Assembly: GCA_964187785.1 (NCBI GenBank)
Contig: OZ076409.1
Span: 42,534,001-42,598,000, forward strand
Source: Amphiscolops sp. MND2022
Taxonomy: Eukaryota
Length of the DNA stretch: 64,000 nt
Direction: 5' to 3'
Below, piece by piece: positions 3,377 to 25,880 of this stretch; positions within the stretch are counted from its first letter, which is position 1; each line of letters opens with the position of its first letter. Made by a program: the position numbers and the translations under genes. The notes under the pieces are model-generated. The model made no database searches, was not told where the DNA came from, and saw only the letters and a program-made list of their open reading frames with translations.

Positions 3377-3697
3377 ACAAGCCGGGAATGACCCAAGTCG
3401 GCGCCATATCCAAGGCTCAAAAGTAGCAAAAGGAATTCGAAGTGTTAATCATTCCCTTCTAAAGTACAGGAATGAGGAAAAAAACATTTTCCGAATTTTT
3501 TTTCTAAATTCTTTTGAAGTCTTTAGTAAGTCGCATAGTGCCAAAAAATCTAAAGGGGGCCCTTTGAGACTTTTTGAACATCCATTCCGTTGAAAATATA
3601 AAAAGTCGAAGGAGGTCAATGTCGAGACTCGAACCCACGTCCTCTGCTTGGCAGACCCTAAAAATCCTAATTAACCTCTATGCCAAAGTGCAGTAGA
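3377..3697 (-). mobile_element. HINE/DINE-1-like non-autonomous Helentron, 3' part (split by the LTR element)
   Basis: acaagccgggaatgacccaagtcggcgccatatc terminus (3' hairpin plus subterminal IR AGTCGGCGC) shared with copies at 46671, 47459, 21328, 21849 and 44414. Confidence 0.75.
3620..3692 (-). promoter_or_regulatory. tRNA(Gly)-like internal Pol III promoter inside the HINE
   Basis: Minus strand A-box-like TGGCATAGAGG and B-box GGTTCGAGTC with CTGCCAAGCAGAGGACGTGGGTTCGA between them; related segments at ~47265-47330 and ~47730-47800. Confidence 0.55.
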
Positions 3698-4444
3698 TGT
3701 AACGATAAGCGCCGGCGCTTGAACCGTAACTTAGAGTGGAGGAACTAGAACAGCGAATATAATCTGGGACTTAGATCTCCGCGGCCCTAGCTCATTTTCC
3801 CTCCGAAGGAGCCAGTCCCAAGTTGGGGGAACCGTCTTGTAAGAAACTCTCTGGCCTGGTCCCAGTCTGTAACTGCTAAAAGTAACCGGCATCTTGCATA
3901 ACTCAAGACCACTGCTCAACTAGCCTTTAAAAAGAGGGCTGAAAACAAGAGGAGGTTGAGCCATAGTATTGGAGAATCTGATAAAATCGACATATCCAAA
4001 TAGGTAAATATAGATGTTCAAGGGCAGCTCTCGAGCATATCTATCTACAGCAAAGGGAAATACAACAAAATTAACAATTTGAGTCATTTTGGTAGAAATT
4101 GACCTCGGCTCCCAGCGCTAGCGCTCGTCACCACACAGGACACTGCAGGGATACTCAGGCGAACATCTGGAACACGGGTTTCCGGTACTATAGTAGTGTC
4201 GATCTCTGGGGGATGGGCACAATACCGTGTTTTTCAGACGAAAAAATACGTCTTTTTTGTCGTTTCTTGCGTTCGCTCTTCGCTGGCGGTGATTTCTGAT
4301 TTTCTGGGGTGCTTTTTCTGGCAGGTACTTCATCTTGAGCATGTTTGAGTGCCACGTCAGATTTGAACGAATTTTTGGCAAAATTTCTGAACATGTCGAG
4401 TTGCAAAATCGGTGGACATTGCTGTACCAGAGCTTGCCGTTACA
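3698..4444 (-). repeat. 3' LTR (747 bp)
   Basis: Starts tgtaacgataagc and ends gcttgccgttaca (imperfect 13-bp terminal inverted repeat). About 16 differences counted by eye against the other LTR. Confidence 0.95.
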
Positions 4445-4461
4445 TCACTCCCTGGGCTTCT
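4445..4461 (-). promoter_or_regulatory. Polypurine tract
   Basis: Minus strand AGAAGCCCAGGGAGTGA directly precedes the TGTAACGG start of the 3' LTR. Confidence 0.6.
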
Positions 4462-5215
4462 GGCTTTTCGTCCCTGGCAAGCGGCGTATGAGCTCATCTA
4501 GAAACTGCGTCACCATGACTGCTGGGAACCATCATCCACACATCAGGGGACAAGGACAAGTCCTTGTTTTTCAGCAACAATTTTGGTCAATTTTCGCGGT
4601 TTTTGTCAAAGAAAATCTTACTGCCTAGTATTTTTTTACAAAAATGCGAACGAGGTTTTAGCACCAGCTCGAGAGCTAAGGTTTTCAGTCGGTTAAAACT
4701 CGTTTGGGCAAGCAGTTCTCGCTAAAAACTCTTTTGCGACCAAGGTCAGCTGAAATCTTTTTTTTGCAACTTGACATTTACAGTTTTCAGTCAATTTCGG
4801 GCGACGTAAAACTTCTTTTGGGAGAGCGCAGATTTGCCTACTCATCAGACAGTCGATAGAAGATGCTTGAACAACAAAAAACAAGGAAAGACAGCAAAAA
4901 CCGTAACTAAAAGGCTAAAACTTTTTCTTGACTATGGCAACTCAAAAACACCGTGAACGGTGCGCAACAAAAATAGCAGTTTTTCTTTGGTAATAATTTC
5001 TTTTTTCAACTTTGTAGGCCAAGCAGCTGGGGCAGGCGCACTCTATTGGCCGTACACCCAGCGCAATACTAACAATACATTAACTAAGTAATGACTATGA
5101 ACAAAAAATTGCACCATGTACGGGTAGCACCGGTTAAAGCTATAAGTTTGAAGGCACTATTTCGGCAGAGTTTAGAGTCTATAGGGAGCGCGAACGCTCC
5201 CATTGGCGGCAGGGT

Positions 5216-8200
5216 TCACTGGGCTGAGCTGCGTCGAGCTCGATTCTTGGTGGCATCATCGGAAGTTCCTGAATTGCTAGCATCTTCCAACGCGACTGAC
5301 GCTCTACGTTGAGCAGGAACTACAGTAACTACTGTTTCCGAGTCTGAAAGGTCTTCTGGGAGCGCTAAATCGGCGATCGGCTGCACCACAGGATAGTGTT
5401 GGGGGTCAGTTCAGCGGCGTGTTCTCCGGTTTGGGGCTGCGATGACTGAGGACTGGCCTGTGACGACGGTGGACTAATTGGCTCTGGGTTCAAGACATGA
5501 GTGGGTAGATCAAGGGTTATGGGTCGTACGCTGGGTTGACTCCTCGATATAGCCATTGTTGGTGCGAGCATGGTAGGCGCGAACGCCTGTTGTCTGGCGG
5601 TCTCGGCTCGACTCTCCACAGCCAAGGATACTCGCTTGGAAACCCAGCCAGGCTGATTCCAGAGCTCGCAAGCTCGCTTCCATTTCGGGAAGCTGGCAAT
5701 CTCCAGTTCCGAGCAACGTCCCTCCCATTCTGCACGGGCTTCAGAACCTAAGACGGAATTTATCTCATCGTGTAACACGATTGACATATCTCCTGACATC
5801 GTCATCTTTCCCTGGGGCCTCCATACAGATCTTCATGGAAACGGAGTAATGCGGCACCGAAAATTTCGCTGTCGAATTTGGGCGGCTCCTTCAATCCAAC
5901 CCGGGATTTGCGCCAGTTCCAAATGTTGGATCTGTCGGTTTAAAGTCTCAGGGGCGCGACCAACGGGCTTCGCTCTGGGCCATCCCGGTGGTTCTTTCCA
6001 GTATAGTTTGGGAAAGTGATGCACCGGAAACTGTAGAGGGGGTCTATTGGTGGACCAGCACTAGTGCTGGCACGGATCACCTTACGAATGAATTCTTGGG
6101 TCCATGGAAACCGGAAGGGGACTCCATTCAGGCTGAGGGGGCGGAGTACCAATTGATTGGGCCGTACTCCCGAGGCAAAGGACATGCTTTTCGCGTGACG
6201 CAGTAGCCCCATCAAATTCTCCTCCAACTGTTTCTCAGACTTCAGAGTAGTGTACCCATGCGGCATTTCTCCACTCAGTACGGCCTGTACAACGCGTGGG
6301 TAAGTCAGCGAGTGGCGTCCTTGAAAATAGGTGCAGAAGGATACCATATGCACCTGCACTGCTCTCGCGAGGGCCTTAGTTGGGTACCTGCACACACCAA
6401 TTGCGCCGAAAATTGGGGCCAAAACTGGAGCCATGGTGGGCACAAAGTCCTCTACTTCGGCTAACGTCAGTTCAGCGAGTTGCTGTGGCATAGGAAATCC
6501 GGCCAACTCCCAGGGTATCTGGCGCTCCGCATTATGTAGAGGTTGCGACTGGTCCACGCCTACGAATAAACCAGAGGCGAATACCAGGGTGGAGTACAAC
6601 CAATGTTGGATCGACGCACGCATGCGCTCCAATTGGGCGGAATAGTTTTGCTGGTCCTTGGAATTCATGAGGTGACCCCAGCGGGTCAGGCTGCGGAGTT
6701 GTCCTTGTGCAAGGACCAGATAGCTGTAGAAGGTGATTAGGTCACCGGATGTCACGATGACAATCAGGAGGGCCAGGGGGCCAGCCACAAACTTTGTCGG
6801 GCCCATCGTTAGCGCGAGCGCTAACACTTCTCCTACGGTGGCCTCGCCGATGGTTTCCAGTAGTTTGTCGGCCTGCACATTGGTGAGCGAGAACTCGGCG
6901 GCGATTACATCGATGTTCCAGCCCAGACCTAGACTGGTACAAAAGGCTTCCAGGGGGCAGTCGTGCTCTCGAGCCACTTCCGCCAAGGTTCTGTCCACGA
7001 ATCTGGCCTGGTACCAGTGGGCGTAGGTAATACTAGCTGCATCTACCTCGTTCTTCAGGTTGGTTGCTTCGTTGGCCACGATGTGCCTGATGCCCACGGG
7101 CAGCTTGACTGGCTCGATTCCAGTAGCAAAGTGAATCTGAGGGACCGTTCGCTCGACCGTGCGCGCAGCAGGCCATGCTTCGTTTTGCTTCACTAACTCA
7201 GCTAGTTCTGCACGTACGGGGACTTCTTTGTCCTTACGCACCAGCCAGTTATGGCGACGGACAGCTTCTCGTTCACTTACGTTGGACTCTCGCATGACAC
7301 GGTTGCCATCCAGGTCGAAGGCCATTCTTCCCATGCACATTCCATGGTCGAAGAGCACGGCGTCGTCTATGGTCAACTGCGCATTCTCCGAACGCTCTAC
7401 AGCGATCAGTACGCGGGATATGGCAGCGAAGAAGGCTGGATATGACAGTGCGTCAGGGCGCAGGTCGCCATGATCCACCCTAAGGTTTGGTGCGCAGATG
7501 GCAAAGTCAATCCTGCGTGCCTTGCACACTTCCAACAGGATATAAACGAACTGTTGCAAACTTTGCTGCCAGTACATGAATCCTGGCGGGGATACGAAGA
7601 GCGCTAGCGCTCCCAGGCGACCCCGAAGGATCCCTGCGGCACGCTCCATCGCATCCGCAACGATGTTCACCAAGGTAGCGACGTTCCCAGGTCGACGGGT
7701 GTCAGCCATGATGGTATCCAGGTCACGCAACAATCCTTCGCACGCCATGTGGTCCCGCAGATTTGCAAAAATCACTCTCTGTGGGGGTGGCTCTTTCAGT
7801 GACCCTCTCAGGTTCGGGTCGTACATTACCCCGATCATTTCAGCAACCTCGGTGAAACGGGACAAGGGCATCGTCAACACCAGTACGTCGGGCATCAGGT
7901 TGTCGATGGGTAGGTCGCTTCTGCAGGTGGAGTCCACTGCCACACAGTAGCGCGCGCGCTGCAAAGCTGCTTTCAGTAGGGGTTTCATGGAAACAATGTT
8001 ACGGGCATAGCGGGCATTTGCTTCCCACGTTTCACCATCTCGCAGTGTGTACCGCGCGGGAAATTGCTCGGTAATGTTGTGTTGCAGGGGCGCCATATAG
8101 TCGTTAGGCGTCATGGGCAGTTGCTCTCGAGCACACTGCTCCCAGGCTTGCTCGGACATGTCTGCATCACAGGGACGCAGTACTCGTGTGATTTGTGCAG

Positions 8201-9505
8201 CGATAGTGATTCGGTTCACTTCTTTCTGGTCAGCTTCTGTCGGGGGTGCTCTCCTTCTGATTGCACACATGTTCAAGTACAGACGTTCTGCGGCCATCCA
8301 AGTTCGCTTACTGTCGCTGGTTGCTACAGAGCCAGACACATCGTCGGATGGTGGTAGGAAGGCTGGCGGGCTGGCTTCCTCAATCGCTTCTGGCATATCC
8401 AAAGACATCTCGGCGGAACCCGTGCCCGAGGGCACGGAGCTTGCTTCAGGGCCGGCCTCCGCGTGCCATATTGCTCAATCGCCTCTCGCATGGTCAGTTG
8501 GGGCGCACCTCGGCCCAGGTGGCCAACACGATATGGGGGCCTGACTATTACTACACTCTTCATCTGGGGTTGCTGAGGCACATCTGCACGCTTGTCCGGA
8601 GGAAGACGACTGGTTGGACTTTCCGTCACCGAGCCAGTGGGGGCAGAGGCGGCACTCTCTCCCGTTACTCGCTTCCGTCCAGCTTCTTCACGTGGGCCAG
8701 TCGCGGTACTGCCACCTGGAGCAGCCGTGGTACTACTGCTGGGTCCAGCTATGGTCTCGGTGTCCATGGATGCTGTTTCGGCTAGAGTGGTGGGAGTTTC
8801 GGAGCCCAAGGGCTGAGCGGCGGCTTGCAAATAGTTAGCCAACCCCGGAATCCTTTGTTCTACTGCCCGAACAAAGTCGGATGAGTTGGGATAATTGGCC
8901 ACGGCTTGCAGTGCCACTATCACTGCCTGTTCGCCAGTGCTTCGCCCAATGAGATTCAGGTTTGGCACAGGTGGTACCCGGGACCCCGAGGGCTCCCGAT
9001 CAGAGACTGGTTGAGTGGTTGGAGGAATCTGCTGAGTTCCGTATGGTGCTCCAAAAGCAGGCGAGCCAGAATAAGTTGGCGTCATCGACACTGAATTCGG
9101 TGCTACAATTGGCGGCAACGAGGGAACATTGGCAGGCATCATTCGCAAGGATGCCTCTTGCTCAAATCTGGTACCTTGGCTGGGGCCGTATACCGCAGTG
9201 GATCGTTCGTCTAGGAAATGATGGGTAAGGTCGTAACCATCCCAGGCTCCGTTGGTACATGTCAGGGCGCGGCGGTAGCCAGCTACCTCAGTTACAATTG
9301 AGAGTGACACGCCTGGCAGCGTTTGCATGGTGTCAAGCTGAGTAAGTAGTGCTGCCACACCAGCGATGGCCACTGGCGGAAGGCCATTTCGCTACCTGTC
9401 CTCTACAAATTGGGCCTGATTGACCCTCTGCGCTCGCGCAGATTCCTGAGGCTTTGCACTACTAGGCCCTGTTGCAGGCACGGAGTTGCTTGGGCAGTAG
9501 GCCAT
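5216..9505 (-). pseudogene. Cargo ORF2, reconstructed ~1,430 aa, with an SGNH/GDSL-esterase-like domain (~7950-7400); joins listed ORFs 8324-9373, 5940-8435, 5833-6024 and 5365-5805
   Basis: ATG at 9505. In-frame stops at 9392-9394 (TAG) and 5833-5835 (TGA). Single-base frameshifts near 8470, 6040 (G5 run) and 5403 (G5 run) link the pieces into one frame ending TGA at 5216. SGNH-like blocks: YCVAVDS, VLTMPLSRF, RVIFANLRD, LFVSPPG, GDLRPDALSY. Confidence 0.7.
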
Positions 9506-9517
9506 TAATTCATAGGT

Positions 9518-9538
9518 CTAAAAAGGATAACTGTTAGG
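9518..9538 (-). promoter_or_regulatory. Putative 3' splice acceptor upstream of ORF2
   Basis: Minus strand cCTAACagttatcctttttAG|acctatgaattaATG: branch-point-like CTAAC, pyrimidine tract and AG, with an open frame into ATG 9505. Confidence 0.5.
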
Positions 9539-9777: not shown

Positions 9778-11766
9778 CTATTCCAGCCCTATACTCAATA
9801 TTGACGCATACACGCGGCTGTGCAAAACGACATGGATACCAGTACCCTCGAACATGTTCGCTAGGGCATAGTACAGATTGACCAACGAGAAGGTAGGTCT
9901 CTCGGGGTCCAGAATGGGCAAATGGATCCGTGCGGATCCCTTGTCCATTGAGCGCTGTAATAGGTGCGTCATGCAGCGCAAACAGTCGTCGGTCAGCAGC
10001 GGCGCACGCTGGTTTGCTCGTACTATCAGCAGGTGAACACTTTGGTTGGGGTTTGGATTAACATCACGGGGGATTGTGAGCATCTCGCCCACCTTAGGCT
10101 GTAAGGAGAATACTTTTTCTATGCCACATTCTCGCAGCACGTATCGCAAGGCGGCGGAGTTAGTTTTCAGGTCAGCGGGGCATGCTAATACGATATCGCC
10201 TTCTACTTGCAACAAGTCAGTTTCGTCGTACGAGACATGTTCGGCTGAATTTGGATATGGGGCTTCCGGGTAAACAATTTCTCGTCCGGGTCCATTGTCG
10301 GAGGGGAGGCACTCGCGAGGCGCGCGTCCTTGAATCGCAGCCAGGTCTTGCCATACCGAGCGGGGCATCGCTCGATTGTCACTGCCGGCTTTGACCCATG
10401 TATCCAGAGTCCCCAGGGCGGCTTTTGGGAACAGAGGGACCTCGAATGTGTGAGTCCACTCATCTAGCAGTCGAATTCTGGGATAGGTGGTGAAGCAGGT
10501 GATGATCAGTTCCAACCACCATGCAAATTTCACCTTGCCCCGATACCAGTCTATGATATGGAAGCAAAGTATCAAGTCCGTAGTGGTCAGGGTCCTAAGA
10601 CTCTCTAAACAGGACAGCAGGTGCAGCGGTTCTACGATTGTCTCCACTCGTGGAGCAGTAACCAGCAACCACCAATGAGGAGCAGGACTGTATACTCCAC
10701 CCGGTTCCATTTGCACTCCGTACTTGTCACACAGCAGGTCAGCAGTGATGCACCGGGCCATTTGCACGGGTTCCCTTTCAAAATTGGATGGTCCAAACGC
10801 AATGTTGTTGGGCACGGGGGGCATCACGGTGGGCAAGGTAAACTCCAGGCCCTTCTCATCACTAGTCCACTCCTTAAACCGGGGGCAAGGAGCTTTCTCT
10901 ACTCCAGGTAATGATAGCTTCTCAAGGATAGCGTCCACGGGGTGATTTCCAGATCGTTCCACGGCGGAGTAGGTTTTCTCGGCCCGCACTGTGAGGCGGT
11001 GCACTAGTTTTTCTCCCTCTTCCGGAGGAATTCCCCGGCCCCCAGTGGGAACCCTCCGGTTCTCTTTCACAGCTAACAAGCAGACACAGTCTCGCAGCCC
11101 GCAGGTTCCGCATTTGTAGCGCGGCTGTCGCTTACTTCTCAGTTGATATCTTGGAGCTTCGGATTCTTCTGCGGATTTTGGGTTTTCGGTCTCGGCCTGG
11201 GTTGCTGTTTCGGCTGGGGCCTCGGTTTCAACGTTCGTGGTTGATTCTTTCTTCCTCGTTTTTGCCTTTGCTCGGACTAGCCGTTTCTTCTGCGCCTTGG
11301 GCGGTCTCCCCCTCCTGTGCTTTCCGTAGGCACAAACTCGAGTGATCCCTCGAGCGAGTCCTGACCCTTGTGGTCTCGAATAATTCGCGTTTTCCACATA
11401 GGTGAGGTCTTGGTCCACAGCGACTTGCAAGCGCGAATTCGTTTCTTCGCTCAGGGGTGCTCGAGAGCACCCTTCCTCGGCTACAGGCTCGTTAGTTACG
11501 TTTGAGTTGGGCCACTCTTCTTCTGCCTCGTTGGCTCTTTCGCGGCATGTCTCGTTGACCCATTGCTCAGTGCGGCGGGAGCTTCCAGAAGTGACTGAAC
11601 CATCGGAGGGGGGAGCCATGGCGGCCAATTCCTCCTTGCGTTGTTGTTCGATAGTAACTTCGTCAGACATTTCGTCTGAAAAATGCGAACCGTCCATCGA
11701 GGATTCATGTGTTGCCCAAGACTGCGAGCTCAGGTCGGACTTCGCAAGACCTCGCATGGCTATCAT
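9778..11766 (-). CDS. Cargo ORF1, 662 aa: acidic N-terminus, AT-hook (RRGRPPK), CxxC-x4-CxC cluster, two tandem TARG1/OARD1-like macrodomains (~10809-10465 and ~10239-9820)
   Basis: Intact ORF. VSYDETDLL..DIVLACPADLK..KVGEMLTI..VHLLIVR..RIHLPIL..MFEGTGIHVVLH and IAFGPSNF..MARCITADL..WWLLVTA..LLSCLESL..CFTTYPRIRLL each track the TARG1 pattern (ITYVKGDLF..LAHCISED..IYYLITK..LSMPRIG..VFEATDIKITVY). Confidence 0.75.
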   Translation of the reverse strand: MIAMRGLAKSDLSSQSWATHESSMDGSHFSDEMSDEVTIEQQRKEELAAMAPPSDGSVTSGSSRRTEQWVNETCRERANEAEEEWPNSNVTNEPVAEEGCSRAPLSEETNSRLQVAVDQDLTYVENANYSRPQGSGLARGITRVCAYGKHRRGRPPKAQKKRLVRAKAKTRKKESTTNVETEAPAETATQAETENPKSAEESEAPRYQLRSKRQPRYKCGTCGLRDCVCLLAVKENRRVPTGGRGIPPEEGEKLVHRLTVRAEKTYSAVERSGNHPVDAILEKLSLPGVEKAPCPRFKEWTSDEKGLEFTLPTVMPPVPNNIAFGPSNFEREPVQMARCITADLLCDKYGVQMEPGGVYSPAPHWWLLVTAPRVETIVEPLHLLSCLESLRTLTTTDLILCFHIIDWYRGKVKFAWWLELIITCFTTYPRIRLLDEWTHTFEVPLFPKAALGTLDTWVKAGSDNRAMPRSVWQDLAAIQGRAPRECLPSDNGPGREIVYPEAPYPNSAEHVSYDETDLLQVEGDIVLACPADLKTNSAALRYVLRECGIEKVFSLQPKVGEMLTIPRDVNPNPNQSVHLLIVRANQRAPLLTDDCLRCMTHLLQRSMDKGSARIHLPILDPERPTFSLVNLYYALANMFEGTGIHVVLHSRVYASILSIGLE

Positions 11767-14254
11767 GCACTATATCAGTGGCCAAACGAGCACTAGTAAC
11801 TCAGACGCCGCCCCTGGTTGGATTTCAGAGAGTACGGGGGCCGCTCAGTCACTATTAGCTCTCTATTCGTTTCGGTGAGGACTTAAGAAAATTGTGGTTG
11901 GCTATGTCCTCTATTTTCCGAAATGCGTTCTAGGGGTTGTAGGCTGCTCAAATTCGCACAGCGCTTTCTCACTAGCACACTGGGCCAGAAAATCAACCTG
12001 GTTTAGGGCAGAAAGTCTCCGGTCACTCACAGGAACAATTTCAAGGAATTTTTGGATTTTCCAAGAATCGCACAACAAGACTCAAGAGGCTCGTGTGTGC
12101 GCTGGAAGCGCTGTATCAAGCCCAAAATTGACCAGCAGATCTTAGGTTCACGTAGGTTTACGAAAACGACTGCAGTTTTGAGCTGCGCCCCTTCTACACA
12201 ATTTCACCTAGGTACAGACGTGCGGTACCACTATGTGCCGAAATACACTGTTTTTCACGTCTTTTTCAGGATTGCGGTCCACTGGAAAGAGCTAGCAAGC
12301 TCAAATTTTCTGCAGCAACGCAGGAACTGGCACAGGTTGCGATGGTGAGCTGCAATATAGCCCACCCGTCAGCTAAGGTGCCCGGGTTACTTGGAAAAAT
12401 CAAGAAAAAACTGCCTTTTTGCGTACTTTTCTGGGCTCCACGTTTTTCCTATTTTCTCGACAAGTATAACACAGATCGGCACCAAACTTGGTAGTCCATG
12501 CCAGTGGGCACCTACAATGCCACTGATATGGTCGACTTGAAGCGCGGGCGCTTATTTGAGGTTTCGACCTGTTATGGACGTTACGCACGAAAAAACACTG
12601 TTTTTGATGACTTTTTCCACAAATTGACCAAGAGGATCACATCAGAAAGTGATACGGCGGGCAAAATGGGACCAACGTGTTGCCCCACTATCTTTCGCAC
12701 TGGGATAAACCCTCAATTGGTTGTGCCCGTTAGGTATGAGGCACTGACAGTCCAGCAGTTTTGGATTTTTTCGGTCCTTTTATGCTTTTCTGAAGTCGAA
12801 ACGTCAGAGAGCTTTTCTCGAGTTTGGTGACCGATACGCTCACCAAATTTTCGGCACTAACGTTAATTTTTGTGGTGATTATGAAACAGCAACCACTTTT
12901 TGGCTAGGGTTCGGAATTGAGTGACCCGACCCTAGTCTGGAGACAGTCCGGTTTAGTGGAAAATTGACCAAATTCAGTGCGTTTTTCCAGTTTTCTCAAC
13001 ACTGAACGGGAATTTTTACACACGGTTTTCACCACCACGCGTTATTTTTATCACAGAAACAGAAAAAAAGAGCGTTCGGAGCCGCTCTGTTCAATTAGAC
13101 TTCGCTCCCAAGACTTTCAGACAATGCACTTTCTATGCCTGAAAACGCCTTAAATCACAGGTTTTTTTACACCGTGTCAGCCCCGGGCTGCCTGAATCCG
13201 CTACAAAAGTTGCAGTTAGTGTCCTGTGGGTTAGTTGCGCTTGCAAAAACAACGTACACTGCTTTTCCATGCTTCTACACAAGTGTACGCCTGTGCTTTT
13301 GGGTGCCTTTTAGGCCAAATTTCCAATTTTTTGCAATTTTCTGGTACTAAATCGGCACTTTTATCACAACCAAAGGTCAGAATACTGCCTCTCGTGCCTT
13401 GTACCAGCTTTCTCGAGCCTTGTAGCTGCTTTTCACAACACTTTTCGCAAAGTTTTCCTGGTTCCACTGAGCACGAGTGCTCGAAACCAAGAAAAACACC
13501 AAAAAAACGCAAAAGTGAGGTTTTTTCGCTAGAGTGCCATCTTTTTCGCAGAAAAGCACTTCATAGGGTGTCGTTACATTTGCGATAAAACGTCACTGAC
13601 CTGCACCAACGATTCCCCGTCGAAAAAGGCGCATTTTCAAAGTTTTTCCCAACCATGAGCCATTTGAGCGACACGTCTGGTCACAGGGGGTGCATCTTCT
13701 CCACGCTTTTTCTCCACATCTAGACCAGACAAAGACACGCGGTTTGGACCATTAGCACCGTCTGCTGTTGCACTTGCTGTCCACCAAAAACCATACCTCT
13801 AGGACGTCTCCACGGGAAATGGGAGTAGAAAGTAGACAACACACAAATTGACTCTTCCCTCGCCTCGCTGGCTCATGGCCAATCATCCACCAGTTACCTT
13901 CTTGCATGGCATAAAATGGCTGAAAATAGCTCGCAAAACCTGTTAAACACCAGTAGCGACGTGCTACTGTCTTCTGTACCTGCAAAAAGATACCCGCTGA
14001 TGGGTACATAACACATCACACAAAAATAGCGATTTTCTTCTAAAACACCTAAAAATGCCATTTTCACACCTGAAAACGTGATTTTTTCGGGTTTTCTCTA
14101 GTTCAACGCTTCTCCCAGTTCCAGTAGGTTGTCACACGACTAAAAAAGGGCAAAACTCTGCTTCTCTCTCCTTTTCCAGAGTCGAAACGGGCTTGGCGCT
14201 GATCACCAGGGGGCCAGATCTTTTAAAAACCGCTCGGGAAAGCTTCCCAAGACG

Positions 14255-14272
14255 ATCCCTCTGTGGTCGCCA
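14255..14272 (-). promoter_or_regulatory. Primer-binding site, tRNA-Arg-like, 15 nt from the LTR
   Basis: Minus strand reads TGGCGACCACAGAGGGAT, resembling the complement of a tRNA-Arg 3' end (...UCCCnnnGUGGUCG-CCA). Spacer TAGAACCTCATTTTT lies between LTR and PBS. Confidence 0.8.
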
Positions 14273-14287
14273 AAAAATGAGGTTCTA

Positions 14288-15033
14288 TGTAACGATAAGC
14301 GCCGGCGCTTGAACCGTAACTTAGAGTGGAGGAACTAGAACAGCGAATATAATCTGGGACTTAGATCTCCGCGGCCCTAGCTCATTTTCCCTCCGAAGGA
14401 GCCAGTCCCAAGTTGGGGGAACAGTCTTGTAAGAAACACTCTGGCCTGGTCCCAGTCTGTAACTGCTAAAAGTAACAGGCATCTTGCATAACTCAAGACC
14501 ACTGCTCAACTAGCCTTTAAAAAAGGGCTGAAAACAAGAGGAGGTTGAGCCATAGTATTGGAGAATCTGATAAAATCGACATATCCAAATAGGTAAATAT
14601 AGATGTTCAAGGGCAGCTCTCGAGCATATCAATCTACAGCAAAGGGAAATACAACAAATTTAACAGCTTGAGTCATTTTGGTAGAAATTGATTTCGGCTC
14701 CCAGCGCTAGCGCTCGTCACCACACAGGACACTGCAGGGATACTCAGGCGAACATCTGGAACACGGGTTTCCGGTACGATAGTAGTGTCGATCTCTGGGG
14801 GATGGGCACAATACCGTGTTTTTCAGACAAAAAAATACGTCTTTTTTGTCGTTTCTTGCGTTCGCTCTTCGCGGGCGGCGATTTCTGATTTTCTGGGTTG
14901 CTTTTTCTGGCAGGTACTTCATCTTGAGCATGTTTGAGTGCCACGTCAGATTTGAACGAATTTTTGGCAAAATTTCTGAACATGTCGAGTTGCAAAATCG
15001 GTGGATATTGCTGTACCAGAGCTTGCCGTTACA
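14288..15033 (-). repeat. 5' LTR (746 bp)
   Basis: Direct repeat of 3698-4444 with TG...CA ends. Confidence 0.95.
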
Positions 15034-18000
15034 AGAAGTTACAAGTTTAGTGTGGCCGTTAGTGGAAGCAACAGCATATAAGGCTTATGAAATCTGTCAC
15101 GTCGTTGGTCAAAAAAGCGCCGAATAAAAAACAAGTGACATTTTGGTGTGAAATAGAATGCAACTGATGTAGAAAAAGATTTTCAAGAGTGGAGTAGCTT
15201 ACAGAAAATCAACAAACTATTTGACAAACACTGTCATCTTTTTGTTTGTTTAACTTTGCTAGGGTTACGGTATGATAGGTCTTCGAAGGATCTCGACATT
15301 TGAACAACTTGGCTGTGCACATGAAATTTGGAATGCATTTCATTCAACGGTGGAAGGGTTTGAGGGACTTTGTTCATATGATCAGAGAAAGTCCTGTAAA
15401 CTAGAAAACAAGTCGCTTCGTCTAAACATGGCTGGTTGTAATCGGTACTTGAAACTACAAGCTTAAGGAATGATGCATTAATATGTGTCAGTTTGTGCTC
15501 GAACATATGATTGTTGCTGGTTACATGTGCTGTGCGATTTTATTTTTTTCTGAACTATGTCGACATGTCCCATTGAGTTGAAAAGGTGGAGGTTTTTGAC
15601 TGCGACTGATTTTTAGGAAACTGAAGACGATATAATTGGAGCATATTGCTGTTTAATGAATATTTTAGATTGTTTTGTTGGAGACTTCAATGAAGACAGA
15701 GTGCAATTTTTTTTGTTTCGACTTTGGTGGAATTGGCTTTTCGAGTAAAGAACAATTTTCAAGACCTGTGCACAATGCCTAATAATTCACACGCCCTTGT
15801 ATTCAATGACAATCTATGGAAGAACAGCTAGAAAAGGTGATACGCCAGCTATTTTTTGCTTAGTAAAAACTTGAGAGAAACTAGAGAAACCCTGTTGTTG
15901 GTTTTTTTTTAAAATCAATGAAAAAGTTTTGAACAACCAACATACAATGAACATTGAGTGGGAAGAGTTATCCGTAAAGGACTGAACACTGCATCGCTTC
16001 ACAAGAGACACCAAAAAATTTTAGTGACGGACAGATCGCACGGCATCATCCTATCTTCAGAGTGAAAACAGGACCTCACTTGAACGATTGACATGATGAT
16101 ATTCAAATGCTGCTCGCTCCAAAAATTAGAAACGCTGATGGCTTGATCCCGGTGCTCATAGAAAAACATACTGCAGCAACCAATGATAGACCGAAGCGAC
16201 TACGAACCCAAACCCAGAAGTAGCGAGCATAGTCGCATAAATCAACTGAAACAGAGGTTGTTATGACATCATCGTCACTTAATATTATTCGGTTCTTAAC
16301 TAGAATTGGAAGCTAAAGAAGATACTCTTAACTTGCTGGTTCTTTGAATATTTTGTACGGATAACGTTGAAAAAAAAGAGAAGCGGAAATGAGCTGGAAT
16401 TTTCAGCACGTTCTTTTCAAACTTTTTTTCCACCATTTTTAATCGGCGCTTCATGAAGTGAAACGCGACTAATATAGTGACTTTTTTCAATCCACACGAA
16501 CCGACCAAAATAGTTCCTAAAAGTTCTACGAAATTTTATGGTCCCAAATTGAATCATTTGTCCTAGCGAACTGAATCAAAAACGTTTTTCCTCTTTTTCC
16601 GCGTAACATACAACACCGGGAGACACTAAAAGGTCCCCTTTCAGTTTTTTCGGCATTGTGAGACTTTTTACCGAAACAATTATCTGCAATATAGCCCACC
16701 CGTCAGCTAAGGTGCCCGGGTTACTTGGAAAAATCAAGAAAAAACTGCCTTTTTGCGTACTTTTCTGGGCTCCACGTTTTTCCTATTTTCTCGACAAGTA
16801 TCACACAGATCGGCACCAAACTTGGTAGTCTATGCCAGTGGGCACCTACAATGCCACTGATATGGTCGACTTGAAGCGCGGGCGCTTATTTCAGGTTTCG
16901 ACCTGTTATGGACGTTACGCACGAAAAAACACTGTCGTCACCACACAGGACACTGCAGGGATACTCAGGCGAACATCTGGAACACGGGTTTCCGGTACTA
17001 TAGTAGTGTCGATCTCTGGGGGATGGGCACAATACCGTGTTTTTCAGACGAAAAAATACGTCTTTTTTGTCGTTTCTTGCGTTCGCTCTTCGCGGGCGGC
17101 GATTTCTGATTTTCTGGGTTGCTTTTTCTGGCAGGTACTTCATCTTGAGCATGTTTGAGTGCCACGTCAGATTTGAACGAATTTTTGGCAAAATTTCTGA
17201 ACATGTCGAGTTGCAAAATCGGTGGATATATCTGTACCAGAGCTTGCCGTTACAAGAAGTTACAAGTTTAGTGTGGCCGTTAGTGGAAGCAACAGCATAT
17301 AAGGCTTATGAAATCTGTCACGTCGTTGGTCAAAAAAGCGCCGAATAAAAAACAAGTGACATTTTGGTGTGAAATAGAATGCAACTGATGTAGAAAAAGA
17401 TTTTCAAGAGTGGAGTAGCTTACAGAAAATCAACAAACTATTTGACAAACACTGTCATCTTTTTGTTTGTTTAACTTTGCTAGGGTTACGGTATGATAGG
17501 TCTTCGAAGGATCTCGACATTTGAACAACTTGGCTGTGCACATGAAATTTGGAATGCATTTCATTCAACGGTGGAAGGGTTTGAGGGACTTTGTTCATAT
17601 GATCAGAGAAAGTCCTGTAAACTAGAAAACAAGTCGCTTCGTCTAAACATGGCTGGTTGTAATCGGTACTTGAAACTACAAGCTTAAGGAATGATGCATT
17701 AATATGTGTCAGTTTGTGCTCGAACATATGATTGTTGCTGGTTACATGTGCTGTGCGATTTTATTTTTTTCTGAACTATGTCGACATGTCCCATTGAGTT
17801 GAAAAGGTGGAGGTTTTTGACTGCGACTGATTTTTAGGAAACTGAAGACGATATAATTGGAGCATATTGCTGTTTAATGAATATTTTAGATCGTTTTGTT
17901 GGAGACTTCAATGAAGACAGAGTGCAATTTTTTTTGTTTCGACTTTGGTAGAATTGGCTTTTCGAGTAAAGAACAATTTTCAAGACCTGTGCACAATGCC

Positions 18001-21000
18001 TAATAATTCACCCGCCCTTGTATTCAATGACAATCTATGGAAGAACAGCTAGAAAAGGTGATACGCCAGCTATTTTTTGCTTAGTAAAAACTTGAGAGAA
18101 ACCCTGTTGTTGGTTTTTTTTTAAAATCAATGAAAAAGTTTTGAACAACCAACATACAATGAACATTGAGTGGGAAGAGTTATCCGTAAAGGACTGAACA
18201 CTGCATCGCTTCACAAGAGACACCAAAAAATTTTAGTGACGGACAGATCGCACGGCATCATCCTATCTTCAGAGTGAAAACAGGACCTCACTTGAACGAT
18301 TGACATGATGATATTCAAATGCTGCTCGCTCCAAAAATTAGAAACGCTGATGGCTTGATCCCGGTGCTCATAGAAAAACATACTGCAGCAACCAATGATA
18401 GACCGAAGCGACTACGAACCCAAACCCAGAAGTAGCGAGCATAGTCGCATAAATCAACTGAAACAGAGGTTGTTATGACATCATCGTCACTTAATATTAT
18501 TCGGTTTTTAACTAGAATTGGAAGCTAAAGAAGATACTCTTAACTTGCTGGTTCTTTGAATATTTTGTACGGATAACGTTGAAAAAAAAAGAGAAGCGGA
18601 AATGAGCTGGAATTTTCAGCACGTTCTTTTCAAACTTTTTTTCCACCATTTTTAATCGGCGCTTCATGAAGTGAAACGCGACTAATATAGTGACTTTTTT
18701 CAATCCACACGAACCGACCAAAATAGTTCCTAAAAGTTCTACGAAATTTTATGGTCCCAAATTGAATCATTTGTCCTAGCGAACTGAATCAAAAACGTTT
18801 TTCCTCTTTTTCCGCGTAACATACAACACCGGGAGACACTAAAAGGTCCCCTTTCAGTTTTTTCGGCATTGTGAGACTTTTTACCGAAACAATTATCTGC
18901 AATATAGCCCACCCGTCAGCTAAGGTGCCCGGGTTACTTGGAAAAATCAAGAAAAAACTGGCTTTTTGCGTACTTTTCTGGGCTCCACGTTTTTCCTATT
19001 TTCTCGACAAGTATCACACAGATCGGCACCAAACTTGGTAGTCTATGCCAGTGGGCACCTACAATGCCACTGATATGGTCGACTTGAAGCGCGGGCGCTT
19101 ATTTGAGGTTTCGACCTGTTATGGACGTTACGCACGAAAAAACACTGTCGTCACCACACAGGACACTGCAGGGATACTCAGGCGAACATCTGGAACACGG
19201 GTTTCCGGTACTATAGTAGTGTCGATCTCTGGGGGATGGGCACAATACCGTGTTTTTCAGACGAAAAAATACGTCTTTTTTGTCGTTTCTTGCGTTCGCT
19301 CTTCGCGGGCGGCGATTTCTGATTTTCTGGGTTGCTTTTTCTGGCAGGTACTTCATCTTGAGCATGTTTGAGTGCCACGTCAGATTTGAACGAATTTTTG
19401 GCAAAATTTCTGAACATGTCGAGTTGCAAAATCGGTGGATATTGCTGTACCAGAGCTTGCCGTTACAAGAAGTTACAAGTTTAGTGTGGCCGTTAGTGGA
19501 AGCAACAGCATATAAGGCTTATGAAATCTGTCACGTCGTTGGTCAAAAAAGCGCCGAATAAAAAACAAGTGACATTTTGGTGTGAAATAGAATGCAACTG
19601 ATGTAGAAAAAGATTTTCAAGAGTGGAGTAGCTTACAGAAAATCAACAAACTATTTGACAAACACTGTCATCTTTTTGTTTGTTTAACTTTGCTAGGGTT
19701 ACGGTATGATAGGTCTTCGAAGGATCTCGACATTTGAACAACTTGGCTGTGCACATGAAATTTGGAATGCATTTCATTCAACGGTGGAAGGGTTTGAGGG
19801 ACTTTGTTCATATGATCAGAGAAAGTCCTGTAAACTAGAAAACAAGTCGCTTCGTCTAAACATGGCTGGTTGTAATCGGTACTTGAAACTACAAGCTTAA
19901 GGAATGATGCATTAATATGTGTCAGTTTGTGCTCGAACATATGATTGTTGCTGGTTACATGTGCTGTGCGATTTTATTTTTTTCTGAACTATGTCGACAT
20001 GTCCCATTGAGTTGAAAAGGTGGAGGTTTTTGACTGCGACTGATTTTTGGGAAACTGAAGACGATATAATTGGAGCATATTGCTGTTTAATAAATATTTT
20101 AGATCGTTTTGTTGGAGACTTTAATGAAGACAGAGTGCAATTTTTTTGTTTCGACTTTGGTGGAATTGGCCTTTCGAGTAAAGAACAATTTTCAAGACCT
20201 GTGCACAATGCCTAATAATTCACACGCCCTTGTATTCAATGACAATCTATGGAAGAACAGCTAGAAAAGGTGATACGCCAGCTATTTTTTGCTTAGTAAA
20301 AACTTGAGAGAAACCCTGTTGTTGGTTTTTTTTTAAAATCAATGAAAAAGTTTTGAACAACCAACATACAATGAACATTGAGTGGGAAGAGTTATCCGTA
20401 AAGGACTGAACACTGCATCGCTTCACAAGAGACACCAAAAAATTTTAGTGACGGACAGATCGCACGGCATCATCCTATCTTCAGAGTGAAAACAGGACCT
20501 CACTTGAACGATTGACATGATGATATTCAAATGCTGCTCGCTCCAAAAATTAGAAACGCTGATGGCTTGATCCCGGTGCTCATAGAAAAACATACTGCAG
20601 CAACCAATGATAGACCGAAGCGACTACGAACCCAAACCCAGAAGTAGCGAGCATAGTCGCATAAATCAACTGAAACAGAGGTTGTTATGACATCATCGTC
20701 ACTTAATATTATTCGGTTTTTAACTAGAATTGGAAGCTAAAGAAGATACTCTTAACTTGCTGGTTCTTTGAATATTTTGTACGGATAACGTTGAAAAAAA
20801 AGAGAAGCGGAAATGAGCTGGAATTTTCAGCACGTTCTTTTCAAACTTTTTTTCCACCATTTCTAATCGGCGCTTCATGAAGTGAAACGCGACTAATATA
20901 GTGACTTTTTTCAATCCACACGAACCGACCAAAATAGTTCCTAAAAGTTCTACGAAATTTTATGGTCCCAAATTGAATCATTTGTCCTAGCGAACTGAAT

Positions 21001-21109
21001 CAAAAACGTTTTTCCTCTTTTTCCGCGTAACATACAACACCGGGAGACACTAAAAGGTCCCCTTTCAGTTTTTTCGGCATTGTGAGACTTTTTACCGAAA
21101 CAATTATCT
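14714..21109. repeat. Near-identical ~2.2-kb tandem triplication (14714-16685, 16686-18898, 18899-21109)
   Basis: Each added unit = copy of internal 12350-12601 + LTR part 14714-15033 + flank 15034-16685; duplicated ORFs in the track confirm it. Confidence 0.95.
15034..15131 (-). mobile_element. HINE 5' part continuing after the LTR element
   Basis: agaagttaca...gtgtggccgttagtgg...gcttatgaaatctgtcac matches the uninterrupted copy at 47381-47450 and ends in subTIR-like aaaagcgccgaataaaa. Confidence 0.75.
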
Positions 21110-23499: not shown

Positions 23500-25880
23500 T
23501 TTTTTCCCCAATTTTAAACGTTTTAATGCAATTTTTGTAAAATTTTCGACAGACTTCGTGGATTAGAATGTTGAAAACGCTCAACATGGCACTAATTTAT
23601 TGTCCAGTAGATTTTCCGAAAAGATAATAGCTGTTTTCCACATGAAAAGATCTGAAATTGACACTAGAAATGACAAAAATCCCAAAATTTTCAATTTTTC
23701 AAAACTTTTACGCATTTTTCGTCAAATTTTTGACAGACTTCGTAGATTGGAATGTTTTAAAGGGTCATCAAGGAAAAGATTGGTTGTCCAATAGTCTTTT
23801 CAAAGACTTTATAGCATTTTTTGGAATGAAAATGTCTCAAATTGACACCAAAAATGACAAAAATCTCAAAATTTTCCAATTTTCAAAGGTTTTATGCTTT
23901 TTTTTTCAAAATTGTCGACAGACTTTGTGGATTGGAACGTTTAAAAAGGTCAACAAGATAGCGTTGTCCAATAGGCTTTTCCGAAGAGTTTATTGCAGTT
24001 TTCCAAGTGAAATTATCTTAAATTGAAACCGAAAATGACAAAAAACCAAAATTTTCCAATGTCCAAAGTTTTTATGCATTTTTTGTTAAGATTTCGACAG
24101 ACCCTCGTTTGGGATTCTCCAAAGGGTCAACAGAAAAGGGTTGCTTGCCCAGTAATCTTTTATGAAGAAATAATTGCAATGTTCTGAATGAAAATGTCTC
24201 AAATTGACATGGAAGATGACGAAAACCCCAAACTTTTCCAATTTTAAAAGATTTTATGTACTTTAAAAAAACAAATTACAGACATTGTCAACTGGAACAT
24301 TGAAAAGAGTCAACAGGGAATAAATGTGTTGTCCATTATGCTTAGGAGTTAGATAAATGCAGTTAATTAAACGAAAACTGTCCGGAATAAAACATCGAAA
24401 AAGACAAAACTTCGAAAGTTTTCCAATTTTGACAATGTTTTTTAAATTTTTGTCGATATATCGATAGACTCCGAGGACTAAATTGTTAAAACTTCTAAAG
24501 CATTGGCAAAAACTTGCTGTTTTGGTGAGCTTCCGTCAGGAGATGAAATCAATTTGTAAAAGAAAATTGCCTCAAAATGACCATTGATTGTCGAAAAGTT
24601 TGAAGTTTTTGTCGTTTTTGATGCAATTTCTGTGCAAATTTCGAGAGATTTTGTTCTAAGTTCCATCACAATCAATTCAACAACGAAAGAACGAGCTATG
24701 TTTTATGATGTTTGAAGAGAACGTTGCAGCGTTTCGCTTCGAAAACACCTCAGAATAACTCCAAAGGTGTCGAAAAATTTCAACTCTTTCGGTTTTGTGC
24801 AACCTGTGTACTTGAATAGTTTTGGAGTCAGAATGTTGGAAAACGTACAACAAAGACTGAACTCATTATCCAGTAGTCTTTGAAGGGATATTCGCAGACT
24901 TTGGTTGGAAAATGGCTCAAAATTGACCGTTAAAAATCGAAAATTTTGTCAAATTCTGACAATTTCATTGAATTTTCTTTTGATTTTGGAGAATTTCGGT
25001 GAAATAAAAGCCTAAAAAAGCTCCAAGTTATAAAACGAGATCCAAAGCACGTTTTTCAAAAACAAATTGCATAATTTATGGTCGAAAGTTTCCTCAGCCT
25101 GATTCTGAGAATAACCCAAGACTTTTCAAGTTCTTTTCAGTCTTTTAGGCCGCTTTTTGTACAATATTTGAGCTTCTTCCTTGCATAAGATTGTTTGAAA
25201 AACTCAACAATGACTAATCCCAGTATCTCTAGTAGGCAATTTTGAAGAGATAACTGCCTTCTCTATTAGAAATGTCATCAAAAACACCCAAAAATCCATG
25301 AAACAACAAAAAAGCACGTTGTTTGACAAACGAATCCCAATTTTTGTGTAAACCACGAACGTTTTTTGCAGAATAGAACTCCCAATGACCTGAGCGTTGA
25401 AATTTTAAGGTATTCAAAACGCAATTGGGTAAAAAGTGAGATGAAGTTTACAACAAAGTTGTCAAAGTTTCCTAACTTTCTTTATTTTGAACAACATAGT
25501 CCAAATTTTGGAGCCTTTCCGAAAATTTACTATAATCAGAATTACCATAGGCTCAAATTGAAAAGTGTAGCTACCATTAGTGTTTCGAAAAAATATCAGA
25601 CAAGTTTATTTGCACAACTTTCAAAAACGTTTTTGTGAAAACGTATTTTTCGACCTCTTTTGTCCAATATTCAAACACCTTCAAGCAAAATCACTGGATA
25701 AGGAGTGCACCTTCCAAAGGAAAATTTTTCGGCTACCCCGTGTGTTAGAATGTTGTAGACATTCAACAATAACTAAACTCGGTGTCCAGTAGGCTTGTTT
25801 GTGAAGAGATATCTGTAGAATCATGTCAGAAAAGTTCCTCAAATTGACACCAAAGTTGTCAAACCTATTTCCAGTTTTTG
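23500..25880. repeat. Degenerate tandem array, period ~180-186 bp, roughly 13 units
   Basis: acagacttcgt-like anchors at ~23548, 23733, 23918, 24097, 24278 and 24464; recurrent ctcaaattgacacc and tgtccagtag motifs that decay rightwards. Confidence 0.8.

Follow-up and report, generated by a model that had tools for sequence, protein, structure and literature searches.

A decayed third reading frame with an SGNH-type domain in a Ty3/Gypsy retrotransposon of Amphiscolops sp., and an intron-less copy that points to its joining with Gag-protease

The window analysed here is a stretch of 64,000 nucleotides from Amphiscolops sp. MND2022 (assembly GCA_964187785.1, contig OZ076409.1, positions 42,534,001 to 42,598,000 of the forward strand). 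On its minus strand, positions 5,216–9,505 are the decayed third open reading frame (ORF3) of a Ty3/Gypsy long terminal repeat (LTR) retrotransposon of ~18.7 kb. The identity of the element, the presence of a single ORF under selection and the SGNH fold of part of its protein can, taken together, be regarded as practically certain. Because an intron-less genomic copy joins ORF3 in frame to Gag-protease, the ORF3 protein likely travels with the particles of the element instead of acting as an envelope, and on the sequences compared here a Gag-protease-ORF3 fusion is slightly favoured as a real route into those particles.

ORF3 runs from an ATG at 9,505 to a TGA at 5,216, spanning 4,290 nt or 1,430 codons. 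A preliminary description, made from the letters of the window, had merged the listed ORF pieces into one frame, and this merger holds, as a natural homologue of 1,426 aa (P0154) covers the whole of it. P0154 is 84% identical to the ORF of a sister copy, and its length recurs in 7 of the 15 members listed of its 581-member cluster. Three frameshifts and two stops had been counted; the stops stand, at 9,394 and 5,835, but the frame changes number five, which were traced against P0154 to positions near 8,470, 6,195, 6,135, 6,004 and 5,390–5,400. The pair near 6,195 and 6,135 cancel each other out and had been missed, and a frameshift placed at 6040 actually lies near 6,004. Judged from the alignments, the breaks are private to the window copy; at four of the five sites the window stands apart from 25–29 of the 29 other copies, and at the fifth, which few loci reach, from six. 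Assembly error is unlikely as a general cause, since 67 of 150 scored matches of the sister P0197-type family keep frames of at least 1,449 codons in the same assembly, although single sites may still be such errors. Three of the five loci examined from the P0154-type family also have unbroken frames, of 1,420–1,425 codons. The relatives hold one frame of 1,420–1,490 codons rather than the separate ORFs for which the preliminary description had left room. Each of ten other copies traced has at least one break, mostly elsewhere, with one spot, near residue 1,120, recurring in 4 of 11.

From these comparisons ORF3 reads as one frame under purifying selection in the relatives. The ratio of nonsynonymous to synonymous substitution rates (dN/dS) between the window and a P0154-type copy is 0.07 (dN 0.088, dS 1.27; 744 comparable codons); by part it is 0.05 for the SGNH domain, 0.13 for a helical domain, 0.15–0.17 for a Pro/Ser linker and 0.07–0.08 for the N-terminal segment, all values being approximate because dS is large. 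Against a close copy the window gives 0.69, which matches the expectation of decay after insertion. At E<=0.001, 387 representative proteins match ORF3, the best 150 of them reaching down to ~29% identity, and no homologue among the matches listed carries a useful name. The only named one among those listed, P0099, comes from an 816-bp contig of a Bacteroidota metagenome-assembled genome and is likely host DNA in a metagenome bin. Two further database proteins, P0217 and P0021, match both the pol tail and ORF3, and are probably deletion products of other copies.

The SGNH fold had been proposed from sequence blocks. AlphaFold2 was run on residues 375–1,308 of P0154 with 145 alignment rows, the first 374 residues lying outside the model, and gave two confident domains. 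The first, with a pLDDT (predicted local distance difference test) score of 84–98 across it, bears the proposal out; its top structural match is the hydrolase PAF-AH (1bwp; Z 10.6, root-mean-square deviation 3.8, 181 aligned), and 27 chains reach Z 8. All 50 structural-match rows are SGNH-type domains, by their titles or, where these are silent, as we presume. Foldseek also ranks an SGNH family first, a library of viral folds gave weak SGNH rows only, and the Atlas gave only rows at <=0.80 for this part. Two results tell against the fold assignment: the best Foldseek row reaches an E of only 0.08 with nothing at E<=0.001, and a profile comparison with the intact SGNH domains of the same genome was not significant (probability 0.28%). 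Pfam held nothing relevant for any ORF3 piece, and sequence searches of the PDB with P0001, A1 and A4 returned nothing significant.

The preliminary description had read VDS in place of GDS and DLRP in place of DxxH. Both motifs are present, at 7,937 and 7,466, but the register of the second, in block V, was likely shifted by one. In block I, D-S-T is kept (42/47, 44/48 and 42/48 rows) and the Gly before D-S is replaced. The oxyanion Gly position of block II, in a register taken from a weak profile alignment, is Leu in 49 of 57 rows and Gly in two. At the end of strand 3 an N-x-x-D-H motif is near invariant (N 55/56, D 53/55, H 49/55) and is a candidate for the G-x-N-D of block III, in a tentative register. 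Block V reads L-R-P-x-x-x-S-Y, and 52 of 62 rows have Arg where the catalytic His would likely be; His is outside the five commonest residues there, position -3 is variable, and no D-x-x-H is present. The intact SGNH domains of the same genome read I/V-H-P-N-x-x-G, and the last helix of the model starts three residues past the block V Arg. Because L-R-P aligns with I/V-H-P of the intact domains, and because of this helix start, we place the Arg at the catalytic His, so that the change in block V is likely His to Arg, not His to Pro. It counts against this placement that the register comes from motif spacing and a predicted helix start, without a printed structural alignment.

On this model, canonical catalysis has quite probably been lost. 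The kept D-S-T nucleophile motif and the near-invariant N-x-x-D-H would suit a working hydrolase or acyltransferase whose active site has been rearranged. However, the His of N-x-x-D-H is Tyr or Asp in the distant members P0094 and P0276, and the block II Gly and the D-x-x-H of block V have largely or wholly gone, which makes an active enzyme improbable. Strong selection on the domain after a likely loss of catalysis points to binding as the useful property. Elsewhere in the genome, an unrelated Gypsy family carries an intact GDSL domain (GDS, GTND, DGIHPN) directly behind its integrase, and further intact GDSL domains are found in ORF1 of long interspersed nuclear elements (LINEs). Descent of ORF3 from the intact domain of the other Gypsy family is not supported; the RNase H/integrase parts are only 28–33% identical, and the SGNH profiles are not significantly alike.

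The part of the protein after the SGNH-like domain, called unrecognised in the preliminary description, still is. The all-helical domain found there had no Foldseek match at E<=0.001, none in the Atlas and a best structural Z of 3.7; on its model it is a candidate new fold, a missing match being no proof. Another ~270 residues were modelled at low confidence. A hydrophobic segment around a PIFG motif holds the highest 19-residue Kyte-Doolittle window (1.7–2.3) in all four long homologues. This segment of membrane-spanning strength, together with the env position and the splice acceptor, is what an env-like glycoprotein for cell-to-cell spread would have in its favour. But a hydropathy and motif scan of the same four homologues, made with no dedicated predictor, detected no signal-like N-terminus, no conserved furin-like site and no C-terminal anchor; the N-terminus is polar and Cys makes up 1.0–1.4%. 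None of the fold searches with the modelled parts listed a fusion glycoprotein, although the unmodelled parts might still hold one, and the confident domains are SGNH-type and helical. An envelope function is very improbable, in agreement with the earlier proposal of a non-env accessory protein.

How is such a protein expressed? The preliminary description had pointed to a CTAAC/pyrimidine/AG acceptor just upstream of the ATG. The site is present, and the exon behind it begins at 9,517, in phase with ORF3. Its AG is kept in all 11 covering copies of the window family (14 loci examined), and in 5/5, 11/12, 19/20 and 12/12 copies of four related families. Reverse-transcribed spliced RNAs were sought in the genome by sequence patterns. 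The pattern of the exon start behind non-pyrimidine sequence had a single match, a copy on contig C12 in which the DNA upstream of the join is the end of the protease, where unspliced copies continue GTAGGT. This copy is without ~6.2 kb, from the GT of the protease donor to the AG of the ORF3 acceptor, with exact GT-AG ends. The join reads HAHAQ/TYELMAY (slash at the junction) within a 382-codon open frame, leading from Gag-protease into ORF3 in frame. The two LTRs of the copy are 99.5% alike; an inversion of ~500 bp lies inside its ORF3 (L134:3,237–3,737).

The same donor is also joined to a nearer acceptor. Searching for the end of the protease exon not followed by G gave seven exact matches, namely five copies without a 181-nt GT-AG intron, the C12 copy and one point change. 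After loss of the 181-nt intron the frame stops within 14–19 codons. Since every one of the six intron-less copies has an unspliced copy closer to it than any of the other five (subfamilies being 81–97% alike), we take the six losses to be independent. Chance deletion was rejected as their origin; six independent copies share the GT boundary and end at AG, and microhomology at the long join is only 2 nt. The donor GT at the protease end is found in all 16 unspliced copies examined, from four families, and the near acceptor at 181 nt in all four. Two genome pattern searches for other exons joined to the ORF3 acceptor gave only the C12 copy and one point variant. On this genomic record, it is highly probable that the ORF3 acceptor is used. 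The earlier suggestion of expression from spliced RNA is thus upheld for the acceptor but not for a donor in the 5' leader, because the only splice seen to reach ORF3 starts behind the protease.

Whether the long splice serves to make a fusion depends on phase. In three families the spacing from acceptor to ATG is 12, 12 and 6 nt, each in phase and stop-free. Several observations pull in the other direction. First, the P0197- and P0218-type families have 10 nt between the conserved acceptor and the ATG, and the joined frame there would meet a stop after 7 or 10 codons; given this spacing in both, the fusion can at best be specific to a lineage and, by sequence, would not be universal among the families. 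Second, two pattern searches gave no intron-less P0197-type copy, the third and the P0218-type families being outside the search; the sole match of the first P0197-type junction pattern was unrelated DNA, and a sister donor pattern gave none. Third, the long splice is seen in one copy only and could be a minor product. Fourth, a Met follows right after the acceptor in every family, which suggests initiation at ORF3's own AUG. Two ways of rescuing the fusion in the sister families were tried and discarded. An in-frame AAG 39 nt before the P0197-type ATG has no matching AG in the P0218-type copy checked, and slipping by -1 at the join predicted for the sister families would, by reading of the sequence, miss the ORF3 frame.

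The start of ORF3 bears on the same question. An ATG just after the acceptor had been noted before; this is correct for the in-frame ATG, at 9,505, but the first ATG, at 9,513, opens another frame. It starts an upstream ORF of just two codons, the stop of which overlaps with the start of ORF3 (TAATG; window 9,505–9,513), an arrangement kept in the window family and the P0154-type family and not in the other three. ORF3 could therefore be a stand-alone gene read from its own AUG, through a leader cis-splice, through trans-splicing with a spliced leader of the host, or through ribosomes re-initiating behind Gag-protease, with the fusion as a side product. The Met that lies 6–12 nt past the acceptor in each of the five families, and is out of phase in two of them, agrees with this reading, as do the overlapping stop of the upstream ORF in two families and a donor-like CAG/GTCAGT (slash at the putative exon end) near 13,601, ~670 nt after the primer binding site, which is a putative donor common to three families. 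A leader-type subgenomic or trans-spliced RNA would also fit the two sister families better, and ORF3s are typically separate spliced units according to PMC5408684. On the other hand, the pattern searches at the acceptor gave only the protease join and its point variant, 14 ATGs lie ahead of the leader donor-like site, and the phase is kept in the third family despite its 6-nt change of spacer. Translation from its own AUG is a serious candidate, though we hold it to be less probable than the fusion.

For the fusion, we propose a single donor behind the protease with two alternative acceptors, one 181 nt further on and the other at ORF3. RNA left unspliced would be translated into Gag-Pol, and the short splice would yield surplus Gag-protease, about 1,120 codons long and extended by a short tail. 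As the protease-ORF3 join is in frame, the predicted product of the long splice is a Gag-protease-ORF3 polyprotein, of ~2,550 residues. This would co-assemble through Gag, and the protease may cut ORF3 free. A non-catalytic SGNH protein would then likely be carried into the virus-like particle, where it likely helps to attach the particle to membranes. As ligand we favour anionic phospholipid, which might bind in the pocket with the Arg and to the conserved hydrophobic helix; this assignment is tentative, and is made by analogy with the ZfL2-1 esterase and from the hydrophobic segment. It speaks against the scheme that binding, packaging and protease cleavage are inference from sequence alone here. 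In its entirety, namely a three-way switch (Gag-Pol, Gag-protease, Gag-protease-ORF3) built from one donor and two acceptors in a lineage with 3-bp target-site duplications, whose ORF3 protein (pseudo-esterase plus helical domain of undescribed fold) would replace env in the particles by targeting membranes, the picture is offered as a possibility rather than an expectation.

By another analogy, with the OSK domain of Oskar, the pseudo-esterase would bind RNA, and it might package, localise or shield the RNA of the element, including by counter-silencing. This is nearly as likely as a lipid ligand, and hence doubtful too. OSK, which binds RNA (PMC12005264), is among the fold matches (5a4a, Z 7.8), an Arg is conserved in the pocket, and residues 973–1,240 have a net charge of +11. 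However, OSK ranks 34th, below active hydrolases, the SGNH part itself is near neutral (+3), and in the only test of a retroelement esterase, oligo(A) was not bound (PMC3905857).

The remaining features of the element are collected in Table 1.

Table 1. Features of the element in the window copy, in window positions
Feature	Positions	Strand	Remarks
5' LTR	14288..15033	-	746 bp, TG...CA; 97.9% identical to 3' LTR
Primer binding site	14255..14272	-	TGGCGACC...; 15 nt inside the LTR
Non-coding leader	11758..14254	-	~2.5 kb; holds the donor-like site near 13,601
Chimeric ORF	9778..11769	-	663 codons; gag start fused to post-integrase pol tail via internal deletion
Deletion junction	11298..11315	-	~7.4 kb lost at short microhomology
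ORF3 3' splice site	9518..9537	-	branch-like CTAAC 9,537-9,533, pyrimidine run, AG 9,519-9,518
ORF3	5216..9505	-	~1,430 codons; five frame changes and two stops in window copy
N-terminal segment	9160..9505	-	~115 aa; conserved in alignment
Pro/Ser/Thr/Gln-rich linker	8370..9159	-	38% P+S+T+Q; likely disordered
SGNH-fold domain with N-terminal extension	7379..8126	-	model residues 81-330
All-helical domain	6573..7136	-	~190 aa; pLDDT about 82-97 in two models
Hydrophobic segment around PIFG motif	6387..6443	-	conserved; possible membrane-inserted helix; low model confidence
Polypurine tract	4445..4470	-	directly before 3' LTR
3' LTR	3698..4444	-	747 bp; element flanked by 3-bp duplication TCT

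The element is a GC-rich minus-strand block between its two LTRs. A 1-kb probe from ORF3 gave 957 candidates in the 1.07-Gb assembly, 40 of which were scored and, the window itself aside, reached 94–98%. The ~7.4-kb deletion has taken most of gag, the protease, the splice donor, reverse transcriptase, RNase H and integrase from the window copy, which is dead, its donor having gone with the deletion. The deleted stretch is present in all ten other copies, and the order Gag (CCHC)-protease-reverse transcriptase-RNase H-integrase was found in other copies. In a sister-family copy Gag to integrase form one open frame of 2,322 codons, so that gag-pol apparently forms, by its sequence, a single frame some 3,100 codons long. 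Behind the integrase, pol ends in a tail of ~550 aa (window 9,778–10,800, minus strand), which has a CxxC/CxC motif and is 50–71% conserved between families. Two tandem segments in it resemble TARG1-type macrodomains by eye only; neither Pfam nor sequence searches of the PDB bore out a macrodomain there.

Primer binding sites usually lie within a few bases of the LTR end. In all four families examined the site is 15–16 nt off the LTR end (window 14,273–14,287). Its sequence, which we take to be of the tRNA-Arg type, is identical in the three other families with leaders examined. LTR elements usually make target-site duplications of 4–6 bp, a typical rather than a defining length. Here, 11 of the 12 copies having both ends show 3-bp duplications and the twelfth shows one with a mismatch; in the window copy TCT stands at 3,695–3,697 and 15,034–15,036. 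The flanks of two copies were read by eye, as a script had misplaced the LTR start. Plant LTR elements are described with duplications of 4 or 5 bp (PMC6317226), and a 3-bp duplication for Gypsy was not found in the literature searched, most subscription papers and Repbase reports being outside reach. Next to the element, window 14,714–21,109 holds about three tandem units of 2.2 kb, 98–99% identical, each containing the first 320 bp of the LTR together with 252 bp of leader sequence (12,350–12,601); it is a local array partly built from the element. A degenerate tandem repeat of ~182 bp lies at 23,512–24,258.

Giant Gypsy elements are already known (PMC6431247), and so are SGNH domains in several kinds of retroelement. 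The closest parallel is Vesta, a group of bdelloid rotifer LTR retrotransposons that carry a GDSL/SGNH ORF3 (Rodriguez et al. 2017, PMC5408684). As here, the domain sits in a non-env ORF3 behind pol, assumed to be expressed from spliced RNA. Vesta, however, has all its catalytic residues and an amplified ORF of ~1.3 kb, whereas ORF3 here is ~4.3 kb and multi-domain, has Arg likely in place of the His, and comes with direct DNA evidence of a protease splice. It shares with Vesta the position behind pol but not the intact set of S, G, N and H. Inactive GDSL derivatives are reported from Athena-L Penelope-like elements in the same source. Ngaro-like DIRS elements likewise carry an extra SGNH ORF of unproven function at the 3' end, but they are tyrosine-recombinase elements without LTRs or integrase (bioRxiv 10.1101/2021.08.05.455354).

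For the function of the domain, two systems offer themselves. The ORF1p esterase of ZfL2-1 binds anionic phospholipids and not oligo(A) (Schneider et al. 2013, PMC3905857); for it and other CR1/RTEX/Penelope ORF1 proteins, targeting of particles to membranes was proposed. These differ from ORF3 in belonging to non-LTR elements, in a strongly conserved active site and in being the first ORF (PMC3905857), and the structure 4c1b was only a weak Foldseek row against the ORF3 model (E 0.61). Oskar OSK resembles ORF3 in combining a non-catalytic SGNH fold with long disordered linkers (PMC12005264; 5a4a), but Oskar is a germline protein of the host that also has a LOTUS domain, no similarity to ORF3 was seen in its sequence, and the likeness lies in the predicted fold. 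Retroelements have captured SGNH domains repeatedly; the examples known so far are active enzymes, for which no role in LTR elements has been demonstrated.

The splicing pattern has its own relatives. In the Ty1/copia elements EVD, BARE1 and copia, spliced RNAs give surplus Gag, and a splice near the protease in a single gag-pol frame shifts the frame to a stop (PMC5580714). The element studied here, in contrast, is Ty3/Gypsy, keeps the protease and uses the same donor with a second, distant acceptor; no such conserved splicing was seen in Arabidopsis Ty3/Gypsy in that source. In the Ty3/Gypsy element Ogre an intron likewise lies right behind the protease, between GAG-PROT and the reverse transcriptase (PMC6317226), but there splicing enables translation of Pol, whereas in the present element the intron is itself coding, and splicing it out terminates Pol. 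A catalytically dead SGNH ORF3 in an LTR element, a Gag-protease-ORF3 splice and a two-acceptor splice were not found in the literature searched. The SGNH ORF3 itself is a variation on a known theme, and the splice evidence, with its two acceptors and the in-frame fusion, is the new part. The intron-less genomic copies record, at exact junctions, a route by which ORF3 is expressed, and they show in a Ty3/Gypsy element both a splice for surplus Gag like that of copia and an in-frame join through which an accessory protein would reach the particle.

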